Notes under the pieces: model-generated | Seen by the model: the letters and a program-made list of their open reading frames with translations, nothing else | Told to the model about the DNA's origin: nothing | Database searches by the model: none | Translations under genes and position numbers: made by a program | Assembly: GCF_053078305.1 (NCBI RefSeq) | Contig: NZ_CP166879.1 | DNA length: 64,000 bases | Strand: one strand, 5' to 3' | In this document: positions 1 through 63,119 of the stretch, piece by piece | How the letters are laid out: each line of letters opens with the position of its first letter | Numbering within the stretch: the first letter of the stretch is position 1

Positions 1-2607
1 GAGCTGGATATCAACGTTAAACCCGAGCTTGCGGGCCAGCGCCACCATGCCACGATTGTTTGGCATCGTAATACCATTCAGACGTTGTAGTCCGTGATCT
101 CGCGTATAGGTAATCAACTTTTCCATTAAGCGTCGACCTAAGCCTAACCCTTTGAGATCCGAGCGAACCAGCACGGCAAATTCGGCATCGATGTTATCAG
201 GGTCGGAGATCGCACGCGTGACGCCGAGGATCTCTTCCGTTTGATCAATACGTCGTACCGCTACAAACGCCATTTCCCGATCGTAGTCGATCTGCGTCAT
301 GTTGGCTAAATCTTCATGGGTAAATTCGTTGATCTCGCTAAAGTAGCGGTAATAAAGATCTTCTTTGGTGACTCGCGAAATGAATTGCTGAAGTTGTGGC
401 TCATCTTCTGGCAAAATCGGGCGGAACAAGCAGCGTTCACCGTTTTTCAATTCTACCCATTCTTCCAGCTGATGCGGATAAGGGCGCACTGCCAGCCGAC
501 TCTCGTTATCGCCTTCAAACGGCGCGATATCCAGCGTGACATCCAGCGCGGTAAATTCACTGCCAGAAGCCAGCAAAGGATGAATATCCAGACGCTGAAT
601 TTCCGGGCAATCGACAATCAAGTTGGAAACCTGCACCAGAAGCTGGCTCAAGCCTGCAACATCCAATGGGCGTAGCGCACTGCGCGCACGAATCTTTTTA
701 CTTTTGATCCCCTGAATAACCAGATAGCGGGCCAGGTTCATATTCAGCGGCGGCAGTGCGACGACGGCTTGATCTTCAGGACGCCACTCCACACCGCCTT
801 CACCCAGCATGATCAACGGCCCAAAAACCGGATCGTGCTCAACCACAACCCGCAACTCCTGAGCGCCAGCACGGTTAGCCATACTTTGCACCAACAGGCC
901 GTGGACCCGCGCCTGCGGCCAGGTCATTTTTACGCGATCGAAAATAGCGTTTGCCGCTTGCTGGACTTCATTGGCTGTACGCAGGTACAGCATGACGCCC
1001 TGAACTTCCGATTTATGTGGAATATCCGGCGAACGCAATTTCAGCGCCACCGGATAACCAATCTGTTCGGCAATATGCACCGCTTCGGTGCTATCACTGG
1101 CAATCCAGGTAGGGAGCGTGTTCATGCCATACGCTTGCAGGATGGGCTGAACTTCATGGGTATCGAGCGACGTAGCCCCTTCGGCAATCGCCTGTTGCAA
1201 TAGAAGATGCGCTTTTGCGGTATTGGAAGTCAGATTGCTGGGCAACGCCGGCGTTTCGCGTAGTTGCTTCTGATTACGCCGGTACTCCACCATATGCATA
1301 AAAGCAGTGATGGTTCCTTCCGGGGTACGGTAGGTCGGCAGCCCGGCTTCGCTGAATAAACGTCGTGCCTCTTGCGAGGAGTGCTCGCCGCACCAGTTCG
1401 TCAGCAGAGAAACATACTTGCTGCGGGGATGATGCTTTACCGCTTCAATTAATGCTTGCGCACTTTCTGTTGCGGGAGCAGCGGCGCTGGGCGAATGAAT
1501 AACCATCAGCGCATCAAAATCCTGGCTATGGAGCAGAATGTCCAGCGTTTTGACATAATGCTCGCTGCTGGCGTCATCGCGCAGATCGAGCGGGTTAGAG
1601 ATTGCCACATGTCCTGGCAGTGCATCACGCAGTTTCTGGCAGGTTTCTTCGCTTAGTGTTGCCAGCTTGCCATTGCGTGACCATAAGGCATCCAGCGCCA
1701 GCGCGGCAGGCGCAGCACCGTTGCTGATAATCATCAACCGGTCGCCACGCAGCGGGCGCATATGGCTAAGGGTTTCTACCGCCGAAAACAGTTCGTGGGT
1801 GTCCTGTACCCGCAACAAACCGGCACGCTGAATAGCCGCATCCCATGCCGGGTCCATTCCTGCCGTCGTGTTGAGCAGTCGCTGTGCCGCCGGGCTACGT
1901 CCGCTTTTAATCACCAGAATCGGTTTATTACGCGAGGCACTACGGGCCGCCGAAACAAAGCGTCGCGCGTCGCTTAACTGTTCGAGATAGAGCAGGATGG
2001 CGCTGGTTTTACTGTCGCGTGCCAGATAGTCAAGCAATTCATCAACGTCGATATCCAGGCTGTCGCCGAGCGCAATAAAGTAGGAAAAGCCCATCTCACG
2101 CTGTTGCGCCCAGTCGAGGATGGTGTTGGAGACGGCAGCCGATTGTGAAATAAACGCCAGCTTGCCGCGTTTAATAGGTACCGGCGAAAAGCTGGCATTC
2201 AGACCTTGCCAGGGAGCCAGTAAACCCAGACTGTTTGGTCCAAGCAGGCGCATGTTATGGCGCAGGGCGCAGGCGCGGAGATCTTCGTGTTGCGATGCCG
2301 GGGCGGAAAGAATAATGCAGGTTTTACAGCCTTTCTCGCCGAGCTCTTCCAGAAGAGCAAGATTACGGCTGGCATTGGTACATAAAACCGCAAGGTCGGG
2401 TGTAAAGGGCAAGCTGGCAATATCCGGCCAGGCCAACACACCCAACACCGCTTTCCAGGCTGGCGTCACCGGGAGTACCGGTCCGTTAAAGCCTCCCGCC
2501 AGCAGGTTACGCATCATCAGGTAACCTGCGCGATTGGGTTTCATCGACGCGCCAATTACCGCTATCGATTTTGGTCGCAGTAGTGCTTCCAGTCCTCGCT
2601 GACTCAT
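1..2607 (-). CDS. patZ: Protein lysine acetyltransferase Pka/PatZ (YfiQ); 3' end runs off window start
   Basis: Minus-strand translation from ATG at 2607..2605 reads MSQRGLEALLRPKSIAVIGAS... and continues open to position 1 with a GNAT-like C-terminal region; absent from ORF track because its stop lies outside the window. Confidence 0.85.
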   Translation of the reverse strand, partial: MSQRGLEALLRPKSIAVIGASMKPNRAGYLMMRNLLAGGFNGPVLPVTPAWKAVLGVLAWPDIASLPFTPDLAVLCTNASRNLALLEELGEKGCKTCIILSAPASQHEDLRACALRHNMRLLGPNSLGLLAPWQGLNASFSPVPIKRGKLAFISQSAAVSNTILDWAQQREMGFSYFIALGDSLDIDVDELLDYLARDSKTSAILLYLEQLSDARRFVSAARSASRNKPILVIKSGRSPAAQRLLNTTAGMDPAWDAAIQRAGLLRVQDTHELFSAVETLSHMRPLRGDRLMIISNGAAPAALALDALWSRNGKLATLSEETCQKLRDALPGHVAISNPLDLRDDASSEHYVKTLDILLHSQDFDALMVIHSPSAAAPATESAQALIEAVKHHPRSKYVSLLTNWCGEHSSQEARRLFSEAGLPTYRTPEGTITAFMHMVEYRRNQKQLRETPALPSNLTSNTAKAHLLLQQAIAEGATSLDTHEVQPILQAYGMNTLPTWIASDSTEAVHIAEQIGYPVALKLRSPDIPHKSEVQGVMLYLRTANEVQQAANAIFDRVKMTWPQARVHGLLVQSMANRAGAQELRVVVEHDPVFGPLIMLGEGGVEWRPEDQAVVALPPLNMNLARYLVIQGIKSKKIRARSALRPLDVAGLSQLLVQVSNLIVDCPEIQRLDIHPLLASGSEFTALDVTLDIAPFEGDNESRLAVRPYPHQLEEWVELKNGERCLFRPILPEDEPQLQQFISRVTKEDLYYRYFSEINEFTHEDLANMTQIDYDREMAFVAVRRIDQTEEILGVTRAISDPDNIDAEFAVLVRSDLKGLGLGRRLMEKLITYTRDHGLQRLNGITMPNNRGMVALARKLGFNVDIQL

Positions 2608-2638
2608 ACCGGTCTCCCGCAGAAGTGACCGAATGATT

Positions 2639-3337
2639 TTAAACGCTTTCTAACTGTTCTGCTGTGATGCTACCCAGATGTTGCGTTTTTCCTGCCAGAT
2701 AGCGTGTTTTAAAGCGGGTAAAATGCTCGCCTAACCCTGCTGCCGCCCCGGTATCGCCGGCCATATCTAACAGTGCGATGGCTACCTCGGCAGTACAATA
2801 TTGGCCTTCAGCCTGGGCTTCACGCAGGCGATAGGCAGAAAGCCGGGAAAGATCGACGGAAATGACGGGAAGATTATCCAGATACGGACTTTTACGAAAC
2901 ATCTTGCGAGCTTCCGGCCAGGTACCATCGAGCATGATAAACAGCGGTGGCTTACCGGCAGGTGGTGTGAAGATCACTTCCCGTTGCTCATCAGCATACG
3001 AGGCGGGAAAGACCACCATTGGCTGATAATCCGGGTTTTGTACCAGATCCAGCAAATCCTGCGAGGGTTCGGTACGCGACCATTGAAACGCAACGGTATC
3101 AGGCAAAATATCAGCAATCAGACGCCCGGTATTACTGGGCTTCATTGGCTCGGTGTCGAACATCAGCAAACAGAAGCGACTTTTTGCTTCCGCTGGCGTG
3201 ATTGTTGAACAGAGACATAATTTCTCTGGCAAAAGACAGCGTTGGCAGCGACGAACGCGATTACCGCGGGCAAGAAAAGGACGTGTTGCGCGCGCAATAC
3301 GTTCGGCGCGTAACTGGAGAACAGCGTTTTCGGTCAT
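2639..3337 (-). CDS. yfiP: DTW-domain tRNA-uridine aminocarboxypropyltransferase (YfiP/TapT)
   Basis: ORF 2639..3388 contains MTENAVLQLRAERIA... and a DGTW motif; start chosen at internal Met to give 232 aa as in K-12. Confidence 0.8.
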   Translation of the reverse strand: MTENAVLQLRAERIARATRPFLARGNRVRRCQRCLLPEKLCLCSTITPAEAKSRFCLLMFDTEPMKPSNTGRLIADILPDTVAFQWSRTEPSQDLLDLVQNPDYQPMVVFPASYADEQREVIFTPPAGKPPLFIMLDGTWPEARKMFRKSPYLDNLPVISVDLSRLSAYRLREAQAEGQYCTAEVAIALLDMAGDTGAAAGLGEHFTRFKTRYLAGKTQHLGSITAEQLESV

Positions 3338-13630: not shown

Positions 13631-14586
13631 TGAAGCAACTTTGGTTTGCCATGTCATTAGTGACAGGTAGCCTGTTATTCTCTGCTAACGCCTCGGCCAC
13701 TCCCGCGTCCGGGGCGTTATTACAGCAGATGAACCTGGCCAGTCAGTCACTGAATTACGAGCTGTCATTCATCAGCATCAATAAACAGGGTGTTGAGTCT
13801 CTGCGTTATCGACATGCACGCCTCGATAACCGTCCTCTTGCACAATTGTTGCAAATGGATGGCCCGCGCCGGGAAGTGGTACAGCGCGGCAATGAAATCA
13901 GCTATTTTGAACCGGGCCTTGAACCGTTTACTCTTAATGGCGATTACATTGTTGATTCTCTGCCATCGCTCATCTATACCGATTTCAAACGCCTTTCTCC
14001 TTACTACGACTTTATCTCCGTCGGGCGCACGCGTATTGCTGATCGTCTTTGTGAAGTTATTCGCGTGGTTGCTCGTGATGGCACACGCTACAGCTACATC
14101 GTGTGGATGGACACCGAATCGAAATTACCGATGCGGGTTGATCTTCTTGATCGCGATGGTGAAACGCTGGAACAATTTCGCGTGATTGCTTTTAACGTCA
14201 ATCAGGATATCAGCAGCAGTATGCAGACGCTGGCGAAGGCAAATTTGCCGCCGTTGCTTTCTGTTCCTGTAGGTGAAAAAGCTAAATTCAGCTGGACGCC
14301 AACCTGGTTGCCACAGGGTTTTAGCGAAGTTTCCAGTAGTCGACGTCCGCTACCGACGATGGACAACATGCCTATCGAATCACGTCTCTATTCCGACGGA
14401 TTATTCAGCTTCTCGGTAAACGTTAACCGCGCTACGCCATCGAGCACCGATCAGATGTTGCGCACCGGACGCAGAACCGTCAGTACAAGCGTACGTGATA
14501 ACGCTGAAATCACCATTGTCGGTGAACTGCCGCCGCAAACGGCGAAACGCATTGCCGAGAATATTAAGTTCGGGGCAGCGCAATGA
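13630..14586 (+). CDS. rseB: Sigma-E regulatory protein RseB
   Basis: 318 aa with signal peptide MKQLWFAMSLVTGSLLFSANASA; operon position after rseA. Confidence 0.9.
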   Translation: MKQLWFAMSLVTGSLLFSANASATPASGALLQQMNLASQSLNYELSFISINKQGVESLRYRHARLDNRPLAQLLQMDGPRREVVQRGNEISYFEPGLEPFTLNGDYIVDSLPSLIYTDFKRLSPYYDFISVGRTRIADRLCEVIRVVARDGTRYSYIVWMDTESKLPMRVDLLDRDGETLEQFRVIAFNVNQDISSSMQTLAKANLPPLLSVPVGEKAKFSWTPTWLPQGFSEVSSSRRPLPTMDNMPIESRLYSDGLFSFSVNVNRATPSSTDQMLRTGRRTVSTSVRDNAEITIVGELPPQTAKRIAENIKFGAAQ

Positions 14587-15062
14587 TCAAAGAGTGGGCT
14601 ACCGTCGTCTCCTGGCAAAACGGGCAGGCGCTGGTCAGTTGTGATGTTAAAGCCTCATGCAGCAGCTGCGCTTCACGCGCCGGTTGCGGTAGCCGCGTGT
14701 TGAATAAACTTGGCCCGCAAACCACGCATACCATTGTCGTACCCTGTGATGAGCCGTTAGTGCCGGGGCAAAAAGTGGAATTGGGGATCGCCGAAGGCAG
14801 CCTGCTTAGCTCCGCATTACTGGTTTATATGTCGCCGCTGGTGGGATTATTCCTCATCGCTTCGCTATTTCAGCTACTCTTTGCTTCTGACGTCGCAGCA
14901 TTATGTGGTGCGGTCCTCGGCGGTATTGGCGGGTTCCTGATTGCGCGTGGCTACTCGCGTAAGTTTGCTGCCCGGGCAGAATGGCAACCGATCATCTTAA
15001 GCGTGGCATTGCCGCCTGGCCTTGTGCGATTTGAAACATCTTCGGAAGACGCGAGCCAGTGA
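14583..15062 (+). CDS. rseC: RseC (SoxR-reducing system component)
   Basis: 159 aa, Cys-rich N-terminus and two TM helices; overlaps rseB stop. Confidence 0.88.
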   Translation: MIKEWATVVSWQNGQALVSCDVKASCSSCASRAGCGSRVLNKLGPQTTHTIVVPCDEPLVPGQKVELGIAEGSLLSSALLVYMSPLVGLFLIASLFQLLFASDVAALCGAVLGGIGGFLIARGYSRKFAARAEWQPIILSVALPPGLVRFETSSEDASQ

Positions 15063-15259
15063 TTTCACTGGCTTTGTTGCATTTTGCATAACAAATGCGA
15101 GGACGTTTCCAGATACCACAATCCATACGGTATGAACATTTCCTCGCCTCAATGTTGTAGTGTAGAATGCGGCGTTTCTATTAATACAGACGTTAAGCTC
15201 AGAACAGCGACTTCTAAAAGCCTGGTTAACCGGGCATTAAGGCACAATAATCATACTTT

Positions 15260-17059
<1,800 letters not shown>

Positions 17060-18100: not shown

Positions 18101-18189
18101 TATGAGATAAATCTCCCGTGGCTAACGACATCCCCCGTCGTTGTGTATAGAATATTCCCCCGAAGTTTAAGGTTGGCACCTCCAGGTTG

Positions 18190-19904
<1,715 letters not shown>

Positions 19905-21387: not shown

Positions 21388-21767
21388 TGGCAATATTAGG
21401 TTTAGGCACGGATATCGTCGAGATCGCTCGCATAGAAGCAGTGATCGCCCGATCCGGTGAGCGCCTGGCACGCCGCGTATTAAGCGATAACGAATGGGAA
21501 ATTTGGAAAACGCACCACCAGCCGGTGCGTTTTCTGGCGAAACGCTTTGCCGTAAAAGAAGCCGCAGCAAAAGCGTTTGGCACCGGGATCCGCAATGGTC
21601 TGGCGTTTAATCAGTTTGAAGTATTTAACGATGAGCTTGGTAAGCCACGGCTGCGACTGTGGGGCGAGGCATTAAAACTGGCGGAAAAGCTGGGCGTTGC
21701 AAATATGCATGTGACGCTGGCCGATGAGCGCCACTATGCTTGCGCCACGGTAATTATTGAAAGTTAA
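21387..21767 (+). CDS. acpS: Holo-ACP synthase
   Basis: 126 aa [17 protein letters not shown]... Confidence 0.95.
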
Positions 21768-21793
21768 AAATAATACCGTTCTCTTTAAAAAGT

Positions 21794-21826
21794 AAAACCC
21801 CCGAACTGGTAAGGAACGGGGGTTTT
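21794..21826. terminator. Bidirectional hairpin terminator (acpS operon / ohsC)
   Basis: aaaaccccc-g...c-gggggtttt perfect palindrome with flanking A/T runs on both strands. Confidence 0.7.
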
Positions 21827-21890
21827 ACTTTGTAACTTTAATTTAGTGCAGCACGCACCCTCAACAACAGCGATTATGGATCAGGGTAGT
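21795..21890 (-). ncRNA. ohsC: Putative OhsC antitoxin sRNA of the shoB/ohsC type I toxin-antitoxin locus (boundaries approximate)
   Basis: Lies divergently upstream of shoB, ends at the palindromic terminator, and contains tgcagcacgcaccctcaacaa, a near-copy of tgcagcatgcaccctcaataa in the shoB 5' UTR (22094..22114). Confidence 0.4.
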
Positions 21891-22187
21891 TATCTTTTAC
21901 AAGCAACTTGCAATCTTTATCATAAAAACTCGAGCCTTTACGAAGAAAGCGATATTGATGGCAAGATTAACGTGACCGCCAATTCGTAAGTACATTAAAA
22001 TTGGTTTCGTTATTGGCGATTTTGCTGTGCTTTACACCATGCCACAGAATTCCCCCATTGAAACGAGTGGTGTCGTCAAAGCTCTGGTGTGGAGTGCAGC
22101 ATGCACCCTCAATAACTCGCACGTTCAGTTTTGGGGAGATGTAAGGGCTAATCTGAACGGCTGCATTCCTTGTTTAAGGAAAAACGA

Positions 22188-22268
22188 ATGACTGATTGCC
22201 GATACCTTATTAAACGGGCCATCAAAATCATCATTGCTGTTTTACAGCTGATCCTTCTGTTCTTATAA
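22188..22268 (+). CDS. shoB: Type I toxin ShoB (26-aa hydrophobic peptide)
   Basis: ATG at 22188 encodes MTDCRYLIKRAIKIIIAVLQLILLFL then TAA; not in ORF track because under 60 aa. Confidence 0.75.
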   Translation: MTDCRYLIKRAIKIIIAVLQLILLFL

Positions 22269-22285
22269 CACAAGGAAACGTACTT

Positions 22286-22322
22286 AAGGTGCGTCCGGTG
22301 AACCAGTCGGACGCACCTTTAA
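22286..22322 (+). terminator. Hairpin after shoB
   Basis: aggtgcgtccg ... cggacgcacct 11-bp inverted repeat followed by ttaataa. Confidence 0.5.
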
Positions 22323-22462
22323 TAACTATAAATAAGTGTCTGGGCAGATACTATATAAATTAACTTAGTGAATGTTTATGCTAATAATCATCAATTAAAT
22401 AAATATAATAGCGTTAAGGTTTCCCTATAAAATAATTAATACTCTACTTCAGGAGCAGAATA

Positions 22463-22732
<270 letters not shown>

Positions 22733-22937
22733 TTACCGTTAAATTATTTTAAAATCAGTAAGTTGTATCGAGTTTGTATGCTTTACAGTTATTAACTTAC
22801 TGTATGTTGATCCAGTGTATTTAACCTTGATAAACTCAGTCCAGCAACACAAAACCGCAACACATTGCATTTTGTCCCGTAGAAAAGACTTGTATGTGTG
22901 AGCTTGTTTTCTGCGCCTACGCAGATAAGGATTGAGA

Positions 22938-24335
22938 ATGCCGCGCACTGTAACACATAATCCGGATAGCCCCAATAATGACGATGTTTTAGCCGCATCT
23001 GAAAAATGGGACGCCTGTAAACCCCCCTATACCAGCGCACACATAAAAATCTGTGTTGCTGCCGCCAAAATCATCCTCGCAGCTTCCGGCGTGGCTCGCC
23101 GTTCCAAATACGAAAAAGAGAACTATCTCCGTATCGATTTCAGCAAAGCCGGTAAGGTTACATTTTACGCCGAGTTTCCAAAAAAGATGGGCCTCAAGGG
23201 TAAAAAGCTCGGCGAGTGGCCGGAGCTCGCTATCCAGCTGGCGCGCGAAAAAGCGCTAGGTATGGCTGACTGTGGCTTGCGGGCAGAGTCCGTACATGCA
23301 GCGCTGGAAATGTACCGGGATGACCTCAAAGCCAAAGTCGCCCGGCAGAAGCTGAGCCCGGACAGTTTCACAACCTACGGGGTGCGTATCGACCGGATTA
23401 AAGCAACGTTCGGCGAGCGTGAGGTGTTCAGCGACGTAACATACAATCGGCTAGTGGAAGTGCTGGACGAGTGGATCGCCACTCGCTCGAACAATAACGC
23501 CCTGGAGTTGTTTGCCGAGCTCCGTCGGTTCTGGAAGTTCTGCGCACCTACTCTTTGTAACGGTCGCAATGTTGCTGCCAGTCTGCCAGATGATTATGTT
23601 TCCTCCCGCGTACAGAAACCCACCCCCACACGGCTTTTTACCGATATTGAGTCAATCGCCCGGCTCTGGCTCAATGTTGCCGCCTGCACCTCTGTACACC
23701 AGAAGAATGCTGTTCGCTTCATGATCATCACCGGCGTTCGTCCGATTAATGTCCATAACCTGCGCTGGGACTACGTTCACGAGGAGACTGGCGAAATTGT
23801 TTATCCTGAAGGGGTTATCGGCATGCGAGGGGCTATGAAAACACAAAAGGCTTTCCGCCTGCCAATAACGCCGGAGATCCGGCGGATTATCGACGAGCAG
23901 AAAGCATGGCGTGATTCAGTTCCTGAGTGCAACAGGGATTATGTATTTTTGCAGCCGCGTGATCCAATGCAGCCATTTTCAAAACGATCACTGGATAAGC
24001 TAGTGAAAACATACAGCCCGGATGGGGCTGTAAAAGGATTAAAACATGATGGGACTGTTAAAGGGAAAGACGGTGCATTTAATACGATGTGCCGTAAATT
24101 CCTTAAGAGCAATGTTATTGCCTTGATGAAGGAAAGAGGCTATTCCCGATCAGACCGAAGGGAAATCAGCCTCCTTTGCCTTCACCACTCCAGCAAGTCA
24201 GATGACCCGATGGCAGAACATTACGACTTTTCTGATGAGATTTTGCAGGAAGAGATTGCGTTAAAGCGCGAAGCTTTCGAGGCTCACGAGCGGAGCATAC
24301 TTGCGCAGGTGGCATTGCTACGGCGGCGAGGTTAA
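22938..24335 (+). CDS. int: Phage integrase, tyrosine recombinase family
   Basis: Adjacent to attL; C-terminal region with R...H..R...Y-type catalytic signature (ITGVRP..., LHHSSKSD..., AEHY); ATG at 22938 preceded by aagga. Confidence 0.8.
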   Translation: MPRTVTHNPDSPNNDDVLAASEKWDACKPPYTSAHIKICVAAAKIILAASGVARRSKYEKENYLRIDFSKAGKVTFYAEFPKKMGLKGKKLGEWPELAIQLAREKALGMADCGLRAESVHAALEMYRDDLKAKVARQKLSPDSFTTYGVRIDRIKATFGEREVFSDVTYNRLVEVLDEWIATRSNNNALELFAELRRFWKFCAPTLCNGRNVAASLPDDYVSSRVQKPTPTRLFTDIESIARLWLNVAACTSVHQKNAVRFMIITGVRPINVHNLRWDYVHEETGEIVYPEGVIGMRGAMKTQKAFRLPITPEIRRIIDEQKAWRDSVPECNRDYVFLQPRDPMQPFSKRSLDKLVKTYSPDGAVKGLKHDGTVKGKDGAFNTMCRKFLKSNVIALMKERGYSRSDRREISLLCLHHSSKSDDPMAEHYDFSDEILQEEIALKREAFEAHERSILAQVALLRRRG

Positions 24336-63062: not shown

Positions 63063-63119
63063 TTATTTGATTTCACACATATCACAATTGATGCATTTTT
63101 TAGTGATTAACAGCGCCAT
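63063..63119 (-). pseudogene. yfhL: Remnant of original yfhL 5' end (19 codons) at attR
   Basis: Minus-strand ATG at 63119 encodes [18 protein letters not shown] then stop; first 16 residues match YfhL N-terminus; diverges at the att core. Confidence 0.6.
63072..63089. repeat. attR core (18-bp direct repeat)
   Basis: ttcacacatatcacaatt identical to 22676..22693. Confidence 0.6.

Follow-up and report, generated by a model that had tools for sequence, protein, structure and literature searches.

A complete chromosomal shoB/ohsC type I toxin-antitoxin module between acpS and yfhL of Escherichia coli, and comparative support for its predicted OhsC-shoB pairing

Region 21795-22322 of the stretch of E. 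coli DNA analysed here (64,000 nucleotides of NZ_CP166879.1; hereafter the window) is almost certainly an ordinary chromosomal shoB/ohsC type I toxin-antitoxin module, complete and apparently expressible. The locus is already described and occupies its usual position between acpS and yfhL, so that the label of known biology given to it in the preliminary description was appropriate. What the present analysis adds is solely the comparative support for pairing between the antitoxin RNA OhsC and shoB, together with a two-allele structure of the pairing seed.

The identification of the locus was borne out by an Rfam match, by identity and synteny with K-12, by the RefSeq annotation of identical DNA and by agreement of its promoters and ribosome-binding site (RBS) with a published survey (PMC11264685). 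When the whole window was scanned with Rfam, the family ohsC_RNA (RF02495, gathering score 50 bits) matched at 21865..21789 on the minus strand with 103.1 bits (E = 9.4e-16), over positions 1-77 of the 77-position model. Alignment with the shoB-ohsC region of K-12 MG1655, which had been proposed as the check, gave ~96% identity over 691 bp (96.4% for K-12-type strains) with the ohsC 5′ end shared; the ohsC feature of the K-12 RefSeq record (2700520-2700598) begins at the same G as the OhsC of the window (21865). That record annotates ohsC (b4608) and shoB (b4687) between acpS and yfhL, and the gene order pdxJ-acpS-ohsC-shoB-yfhL was the same in the window, K-12, XH990 and every other strain sampled. 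The loci of XH990 and 95-3192 were 100% identical to the window in DNA, and the RefSeq name there is 'type I toxin-antitoxin system toxin ShoB' (WP_000128773.1). All four promoter hexamers and the RBS AAGGAA were exactly those tabulated for shoB/ohsC in Table 2 of PMC11264685, which surveyed over 2000 E. coli genomes and reports this RBS as 100% conserved and the locus as single copy in nearly all E. coli. Of 5426 complete E. coli genomes, 5425 had the locus, the match falling on an annotated shoB, and the allele of the window over a 290-bp core was shared at ≥99% identity by 119 of the 5372 genomes that matched this core. In K-12, the type I function is reported through the abolition of ShoB toxicity by OhsC (Fozo et al. 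2008, as summarised in PMC5668327); by analogy with this K-12 literature, the same toxicity and repression would be expected of the allele in the window.

Some further features were seen in the course of these searches. E. coli SCPM-O-B-9504 (NZ_CP144930.1) carries an IS5-like ISKpn26 element at the expected place of shoB (L013, 1501-2979); ohsC and the promoter region are kept, the match covers query nt 1-201 only, which makes it one of the 'antitoxin-only' strains such as PMC11264685 mentions. The Rfam scan of the window also returned AsrC, the antisense RNA of rseC, at 14547-15378 on the minus strand (514 bits) and the rnc leader element rncO at 18162-18376 on the plus strand (259 bits), as one would expect of the rseC-lepA-lepB-rnc-era region that lies upstream of shoB/ohsC.

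The ORF list and its translation placed the shoB ORF exactly where it had been claimed, at 22188..22268 on the plus strand (ATG at 22188, stop included), encoding the 26-aa hydrophobic toxin MTDCRYLIKRAIKIIIAVLQLILLFL. ShoB of the window was identical to K-12 ShoB in 25 of 26 residues, the sole change being V11A, and a Shine-Dalgarno (SD) sequence AAGGAA was present at 22176-22181, 6 nt before the ATG. Neither Pfam nor NCBIfam has an HMM that matches ShoB, whose identity therefore depends on aligning it directly and on what RefSeq annotates on identical DNA. An extension of shoB to 32 aa from a TTG start was rejected as a gene, the curated start being the ATG at 22188 with its RBS; ORFs of 47, 51 and 54 aa within the UTR were likewise rejected as genes, no supporting evidence having been found for them.

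The antitoxin gene ohsC lies at 21787..21865 on the minus strand. The Rfam model makes its RNA 77 nt long (21865..21789), and carrying over the K-12 feature, with a 3′ end at 21787, makes it 79 nt. In a promoter scan, the ohsC promoter was located at 21873..21902 on the minus strand, with −35 TTGTAA at 21902..21897, an 18-nt spacer and −10 CATAAT at 21878..21873; the +1 at 21865 falls 7 nt downstream of the −10, and this promoter stands 248 bp upstream of the OhsC target site and diverges from shoB. The same scan gave the shoB promoter at 21972..22001 on the plus strand (−35 GTGACC at 21972-21977, 18-nt spacer, −10 TAAAAT at 21996-22001). From promoter spacing and K-12 reports, the shoB +1 is probably at ~22008-22009. 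Promoter, terminator and published size together point to a shoB primary transcript of ~320 nt at 22008..22327 on the plus strand with a 5′ UTR of ~180 nt, in agreement with the published full-length size (PMC5668327). The position assumed for the shoB processing site is a putative one, transferred from K-12 reports.

A bidirectional intrinsic terminator hairpin at 21785..21835, common to acpS (+) and ohsC (−), was evident as an inverted repeat of 19-nt arms with a C5/G5 core and 95% complementarity, and in the OhsC structure of Rfam it appears as the 3′ stem. The shoB terminator hairpin at 22281..22324 (+) is an inverted repeat of 88% complementarity whose arms, 22281-22297 and 22308-22324, are 17 nt each; UUUAAUAA comes after it, and the hairpin forms a 13-bp stem in the minimum free energy (MFE) fold. 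A simple terminator scan of 21700-22500 called neither hairpin, because one has a long loop and that of shoB a weak T-run. As to existing annotation, the PGAP-annotated E. coli genomes sampled list shoB and no ohsC ncRNA feature, the curated K-12 record alone having ohsC, and for the 290-bp core spanning the ohsC 5′ end the annotated features were 'none'.

We then come to the repeat by which the two genes are connected. An exact string search found the shoB-side 21-mer tgcagcatgcaccctcaataa at 22095-22115 and the ohsC-side 21-mer tgcagcacgcaccctcaacaa at 21847-21867; both copies were thus present as the preliminary description had said, but its positions, 22094..22114 and 21849..21869 respectively, had to be corrected by 1-2 nt. 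With a repeat finder, the match was a direct repeat of 24 nt between 21845-21868 and 22093-22116, identical at 22 of 24 positions. This repeat is far beyond chance: 22/24 was the best direct 24-mer match in an 800-nt region, for which 200 dinucleotide shuffles gave a mean of 16.6 (sd 0.7, maximum 19), and when the 20-nt target was looked for throughout the 64 kb of the window, with as many as 3 mismatches allowed, only these two sites came up, against 0.00 expected from 100 shuffles. It is also clear that the repeat is part of OhsC. Both Rfam and K-12 put the OhsC 5′ end at 21865, so that the reverse complement of 21845-21865 makes up OhsC nt 1-21, and bases 21866-21867, with which the ohsC-side 21-mer ends, lie upstream of the OhsC +1.

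The two copies are direct repeats in the DNA but are read from opposite strands, and the RNAs are therefore complementary. The repeat had been proposed as the antisense pairing determinant of divergent partners, and this was borne out, the 5′ end of OhsC being complementary to the shoB 5′ UTR. Repeat, duplex prediction and covariation all mark OhsC nt 1-21 (21845..21865, minus strand) as the 5′ pairing determinant, and the shoB-side copy at 22093..22113 (plus strand), 75-95 nt upstream of the AUG, as its target site. When OhsC 5′-GUUGAGGGUGCGUGCUGCACU was set against shoB mRNA 22113..22093, 21 pairs were predicted with −42.2 kcal/mol. The two mismatches of the DNA repeat appear in this duplex as a G·U wobble in its interior (OhsC G12 with U22102) and another at the OhsC +1 (G1 with U22113). 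These energies were obtained with OhsC nt 1-24 and a 34-nt target; folding of whole OhsC with the whole shoB mRNA produced a meaningless 76-nt interaction and was dropped in favour of the short segments. In the literature, OhsC had been predicted to act via its 5′ end, which is complementary to the shoB 5′ UTR over 19 nt (PMC3919570), and the 2024 survey describes the pairing across strains as highly variable, with validation pending (PMC11264685).

The K-12 locus (genes formerly ryfB/ryfC) shares with the window its position in acpS-ohsC-shoB-yfhL, its divergence, promoter hexamers, RBS, ORF length and terminators. It differs, apart from the V11A change in ShoB, at two bases of OhsC. The change A12>G in the window turns an A-U pair into G·U, and A21>U adds a terminal A-U pair where K-12 has an A·A clash at position 21, so the K-12 duplex, with A12-U in Watson-Crick form, has 20 pairs and −41.4 kcal/mol. 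With 21 pairs and an energy equal to or slightly better than this, the duplex of the window is predicted not to be weakened relative to K-12.

A third partial copy of the repeat, GCACCTTTAATAACT, was noticed at 22313-22327, identical to 22103-22117 at 13 of 15 positions, where it provides the shoB terminator with its 3′ arm and tail. A base-by-base reading by hand suggests that OhsC nt 1-11 could pair with this copy via three G·U pairs, which may be chance. Beside it, AAUAAC at 22321-22326 pairs with the mRNA 5′ end GUUAUU (22009-22014) in the full-length MFE fold.

The pairing was also compared across Escherichia, using 22 loci at which both sites could be read and which gave 8 distinct pairing haplotypes. 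Over these haplotypes, 94% of the cells of the 21-pair duplex were standard pairs, and sliding the register by 1-3 columns reduced this to 23-51%. Five adjacent pairs (OhsC nt 5-9) were changed on both sides. At duplex position 12 A-U, G·U and G-C all occur, at position 10 G-C and G·U, and at position 1 G·U and A-U. One-sided differences were of four kinds, all C/T, each of them giving G·U or A-U and never A·C, which points to constraint at the level of RNA and not of DNA identity, with four cases only to go by. This covariation supports, at the level of sequence comparison, the OhsC-shoB pairing that the literature calls predicted.

A contig scan with a 20-mer from the shoB start gave 6 Escherichia loci and 4 chance matches in unrelated taxa; at the loci of E. 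albertii and E. whittamii the upstream sequence stopped short of ohsC, and the shoB-side sites alone were readable. Two transitions, U22102>C and C22106>U, set the shoB-side target of E. albertii NBRC 107761 apart from that of the window. The E. albertii change U22166>C would turn the 22094:22166 G·U of the alternative pairing described below into G-C and would weaken a terminal pair of the SD hairpin.

The complementarity of the RNAs would be incidental if the repeat were a DNA-level feature, either a duplicated binding site of the CpxR type or a relic of gene conversion. The copies are indeed direct repeats in DNA, and gene conversion could for this reason homogenise them in principle; the 5-nt block ACCCT>GATTC, found in both copies of one allele class (class B, below), is simply explained by copying, and CpxR has been reported at two boxes in the ohsC-shoB intergenic region (PMC9600279; PMC11264685). 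However, the shoB-side copy lies ~85 nt inside the transcribed UTR and not in the promoter region, and a search of 21860-22020 for the CpxR box GTAAA-N5-GTAAA found none with ≤2 mismatches. The constant orientation of the one-sided C/T differences, to G·U or A-U and never to A·C, also speaks against a DNA-level origin, as do the reports that OhsC expression rescues ShoB toxicity (PMC5668327), OhsC having been supplied from a plasmid in PMC3919570. We regard the DNA-level explanation as highly improbable and retain the antisense pairing of the two RNAs.

The pairing determinant of E. coli probably exists as two co-evolved allele classes of poor predicted cross-reactivity, with the five adjacent seed positions compensated on both sides. 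Class A, in which OhsC begins with GUUGAGGGUGC, was found in K-12, BL21, the E. coli W derivative KO11FL, the window and cryptic-clade Escherichia. Class B, in which OhsC begins with GUUGGAAUCGU and meets the matching target CGAUUCCAAU, was found in O157:H7, ST131, UTI89 and O18:H1. The five adjacent compensatory changes separate just these two classes and hence amount to approximately one evolutionary event. The class B duplex contains one internal U·U mismatch in its middle, so that perfect pairing is not required. Cognate pairs were predicted at −34 to −42 kcal/mol and mixed A/B pairs at −18 to −24 kcal/mol, a loss of 10-22 kcal/mol for non-cognate partners. Identity over the ohsC-shoB intergenic core was bimodal, at ~96% or ~85% with few intermediates; by identity bands of the 290-bp core among the 5372 matching genomes, ~3650 were class-A-like (~68%) and 1696 class-B-like (31.6%), the latter proportion agreeing with the 33.1% reported for the TTGTAC −35 variant in PMC11264685. 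The window itself belongs to a minority class A haplotype (119 genomes), with the G·U state at position 12 and one added terminal A-U pair.

To see how pairing at this site might control translation, the inferred shoB mRNA was folded with ViennaRNA. In the full-length 320-nt fold, the SD (22176-22181) is paired with the anti-SD UUCCUU (22166-22171) in a translation-control hairpin at 22160..22181 (+) and has a probability of 0.12 of being unpaired; across all modelled states this probability was 0.08-0.17. The 5′ half of the OhsC site is paired with 22023-22033 in the full-length fold, and its 3′ half (22105-22113) is open. In silico removal of 41 nt from the 5′ end raised the accessibility of the 5′ half from 0.07 to 0.46. 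The SD becomes wholly free in an alternative 10-bp pairing of 22091-22100 to 22160-22169, at a cost of 6.7 kcal/mol for the full-length RNA (fraction 2e-5) and only 0.4 kcal/mol for the +42 form (fraction ~0.1); these energetics hold for 5′ ends from 22045 to 22052. The MFE structure of the processed RNA is still SD-closed, with an open fraction of ~10%, and the OhsC site overlaps the segment corresponding to element 2 of dinQ, all of this in silico.

These folds may be read together with published observations on K-12. There, shoB transcripts of ~320 nt and ~280 nt have been described, of which the processed one alone is translated (PMC5668327); a second 5′ end lies 41 nt downstream of the first, and only the shorter form gave reporter activity (PMC5066626; PMC5668327). 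A dinQ-like switch of four elements was proposed for shoB by Kristiansen et al. (PMC5066626). Along these lines, the primary transcript of the window would keep the 5′ half of the target paired with its own 5′ end (22023-22033), leaving the SD-open conformer negligible. Loss of ~41 nt from the 5′ end, as published for K-12, would free this segment, and the freed 22091-22100 would then be able to engage 22160-22169, the anti-SD region, and so set the SD free, giving the translatable form. OhsC, whose nt 1-7 are single-stranded, would use them to seed on the 3′ half of the target, which is accessible, and the duplex would zip up to 21 bp. Since 22093-22100 belongs to the segment that forms the SD-opening pairing, its capture in the duplex would remove the open conformer; the SD hairpin would re-form and ShoB would not be made. 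Cleavage of the OhsC-shoB duplex by RNase III is plausible by analogy with zorO/OrzO.

The divergent sRNA and the long structured 5′ UTR are features that shoB/ohsC has in common with dinQ/agrB of E. coli (PMC5066626). So is the behaviour of the transcripts, the primary one being inert and the 5′-processed one active (+44 in dinQ, ~+41 in shoB; PMC5066626). Four elements in dinQ allow the SD to be either closed or open in folds that exclude one another, element 2 being the one bound by the sRNA (PMC5066626), and the modelled folds of the shoB mRNA of the window appear to reproduce this logic. On the other hand, the peptide and sRNA sequences of dinQ/agrB are unrelated to those of shoB/ohsC, shoB is not reported as LexA-controlled, and the switch is experimentally shown for dinQ whereas for shoB it is modelled.

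A second way of repression would be the one that IstR-1 uses on tisB mRNA, namely to block a ribosome standby site: the SD would always be closed, and OhsC would occupy ~22093-22113 where the 30S subunit preloads. The tisB/istR-1 and zorO/orzO systems resemble shoB/ohsC as 'unconventional' type I systems with a divergent antitoxin, 18-21 nt of pairing by the sRNA 5′ end and a target far upstream of the RBS (PMC3919570; PMC5668327), and reviews place shoB with tisB and zorO (PMC5668327). The shoB target at 75-95 nt upstream of the AUG is comparable to the ~100 nt given for tisB in the account of PMC7708055. The closed SD in all modelled states (0.08-0.17 unpaired) and the gain in accessibility of the target's 5′ half on removal of the 5′ end are also as a standby mechanism would have it, and a standby block fits equally well because the SD is mostly closed even in the processed model. 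However, tisB and zorO act through a defined standby site, and none is defined for shoB (PMC5668327). Repression can be explained without any standby site, since the SD-opening 10-bp pairing is nearly isoenergetic in the processed RNA and shares sequence with the OhsC site. Two further differences are that tisB is SOS-induced and that zor/orz varies in copy number, shoB/ohsC being single copy in nearly all E. coli (PMC11264685). A standby block thus seems to us possible though not probable for shoB. While the assignment to type I is virtually beyond question, the choice between a dinQ-like switch and a standby block is not secure.

The locus had further been described as lying about 400 bp from a prophage junction, which is correct. 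A prophage of ~40.4 kb occupies 22676-63089 of the window, inserted in the 5′ end of yfhL between two copies of the 18-bp att core TTCACACATATCACAATT (22676-22693 and 63072-63089); BLAST of the prophage-free XH990 against the window showed the chromosome resuming at 63072. The distance to the attL core is 408 bp counted from the stop codon of shoB and 352 bp counted from the end of its terminator stem. The insert begins with an integrase-sized ORF at 22932-24335; in a 24-kb query, 65% of which was aligned, it showed 97.7% identity to Escherichia phages vB_EcoM-689R2, -611R5 and -606R2. It sits in the first codons of yfhL and supplies a surrogate 5′ end, by which YfhL stays at 86 aa with A2S and K8R, and the promoter region of yfhL is now phage DNA upstream.

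Proximity, with attL only 352-408 bp away, is all that would suggest that shoB/ohsC belongs to this prophage or came with it, for instance in the role of an addiction or defence module linked to the phage. Among the 5426 complete E. coli genomes, all but one (5425) have the locus, but the prophage junction is common to only 159 of them (O55:H7 CB9615 included). Moreover, XH990 and 95-3192 carry the 100% identical locus with yfhL-yfhH uninterrupted, and the locus lies outside the att-bounded element. A role for shoB/ohsC as prophage cargo was rejected on account of these prophage-free genomes with the identical locus, and the chance of a prophage origin is practically nil. The adjacency is a coincidence without bearing on shoB/ohsC, since the identical locus occurs in the prophage-free XH990 and lies wholly outside the element.

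Taken as a whole, the original finding is correct and already known, and it matters little beyond proper annotation. Because NCBI annotation lacks ohsC at the sampled loci, it is useful bookkeeping to mark OhsC and its target site explicitly, along with the promoters and terminators. The covariation backs the in vivo relevance of a pairing that has been based on prediction, and it should be of modest interest to workers on toxin-antitoxin systems of type I. The two allele classes, if true, would provide natural covariation evidence for a pairing that PMC11264685 calls not yet validated across strains, and they would constitute a natural pair of orthogonal sRNA/target specificities.
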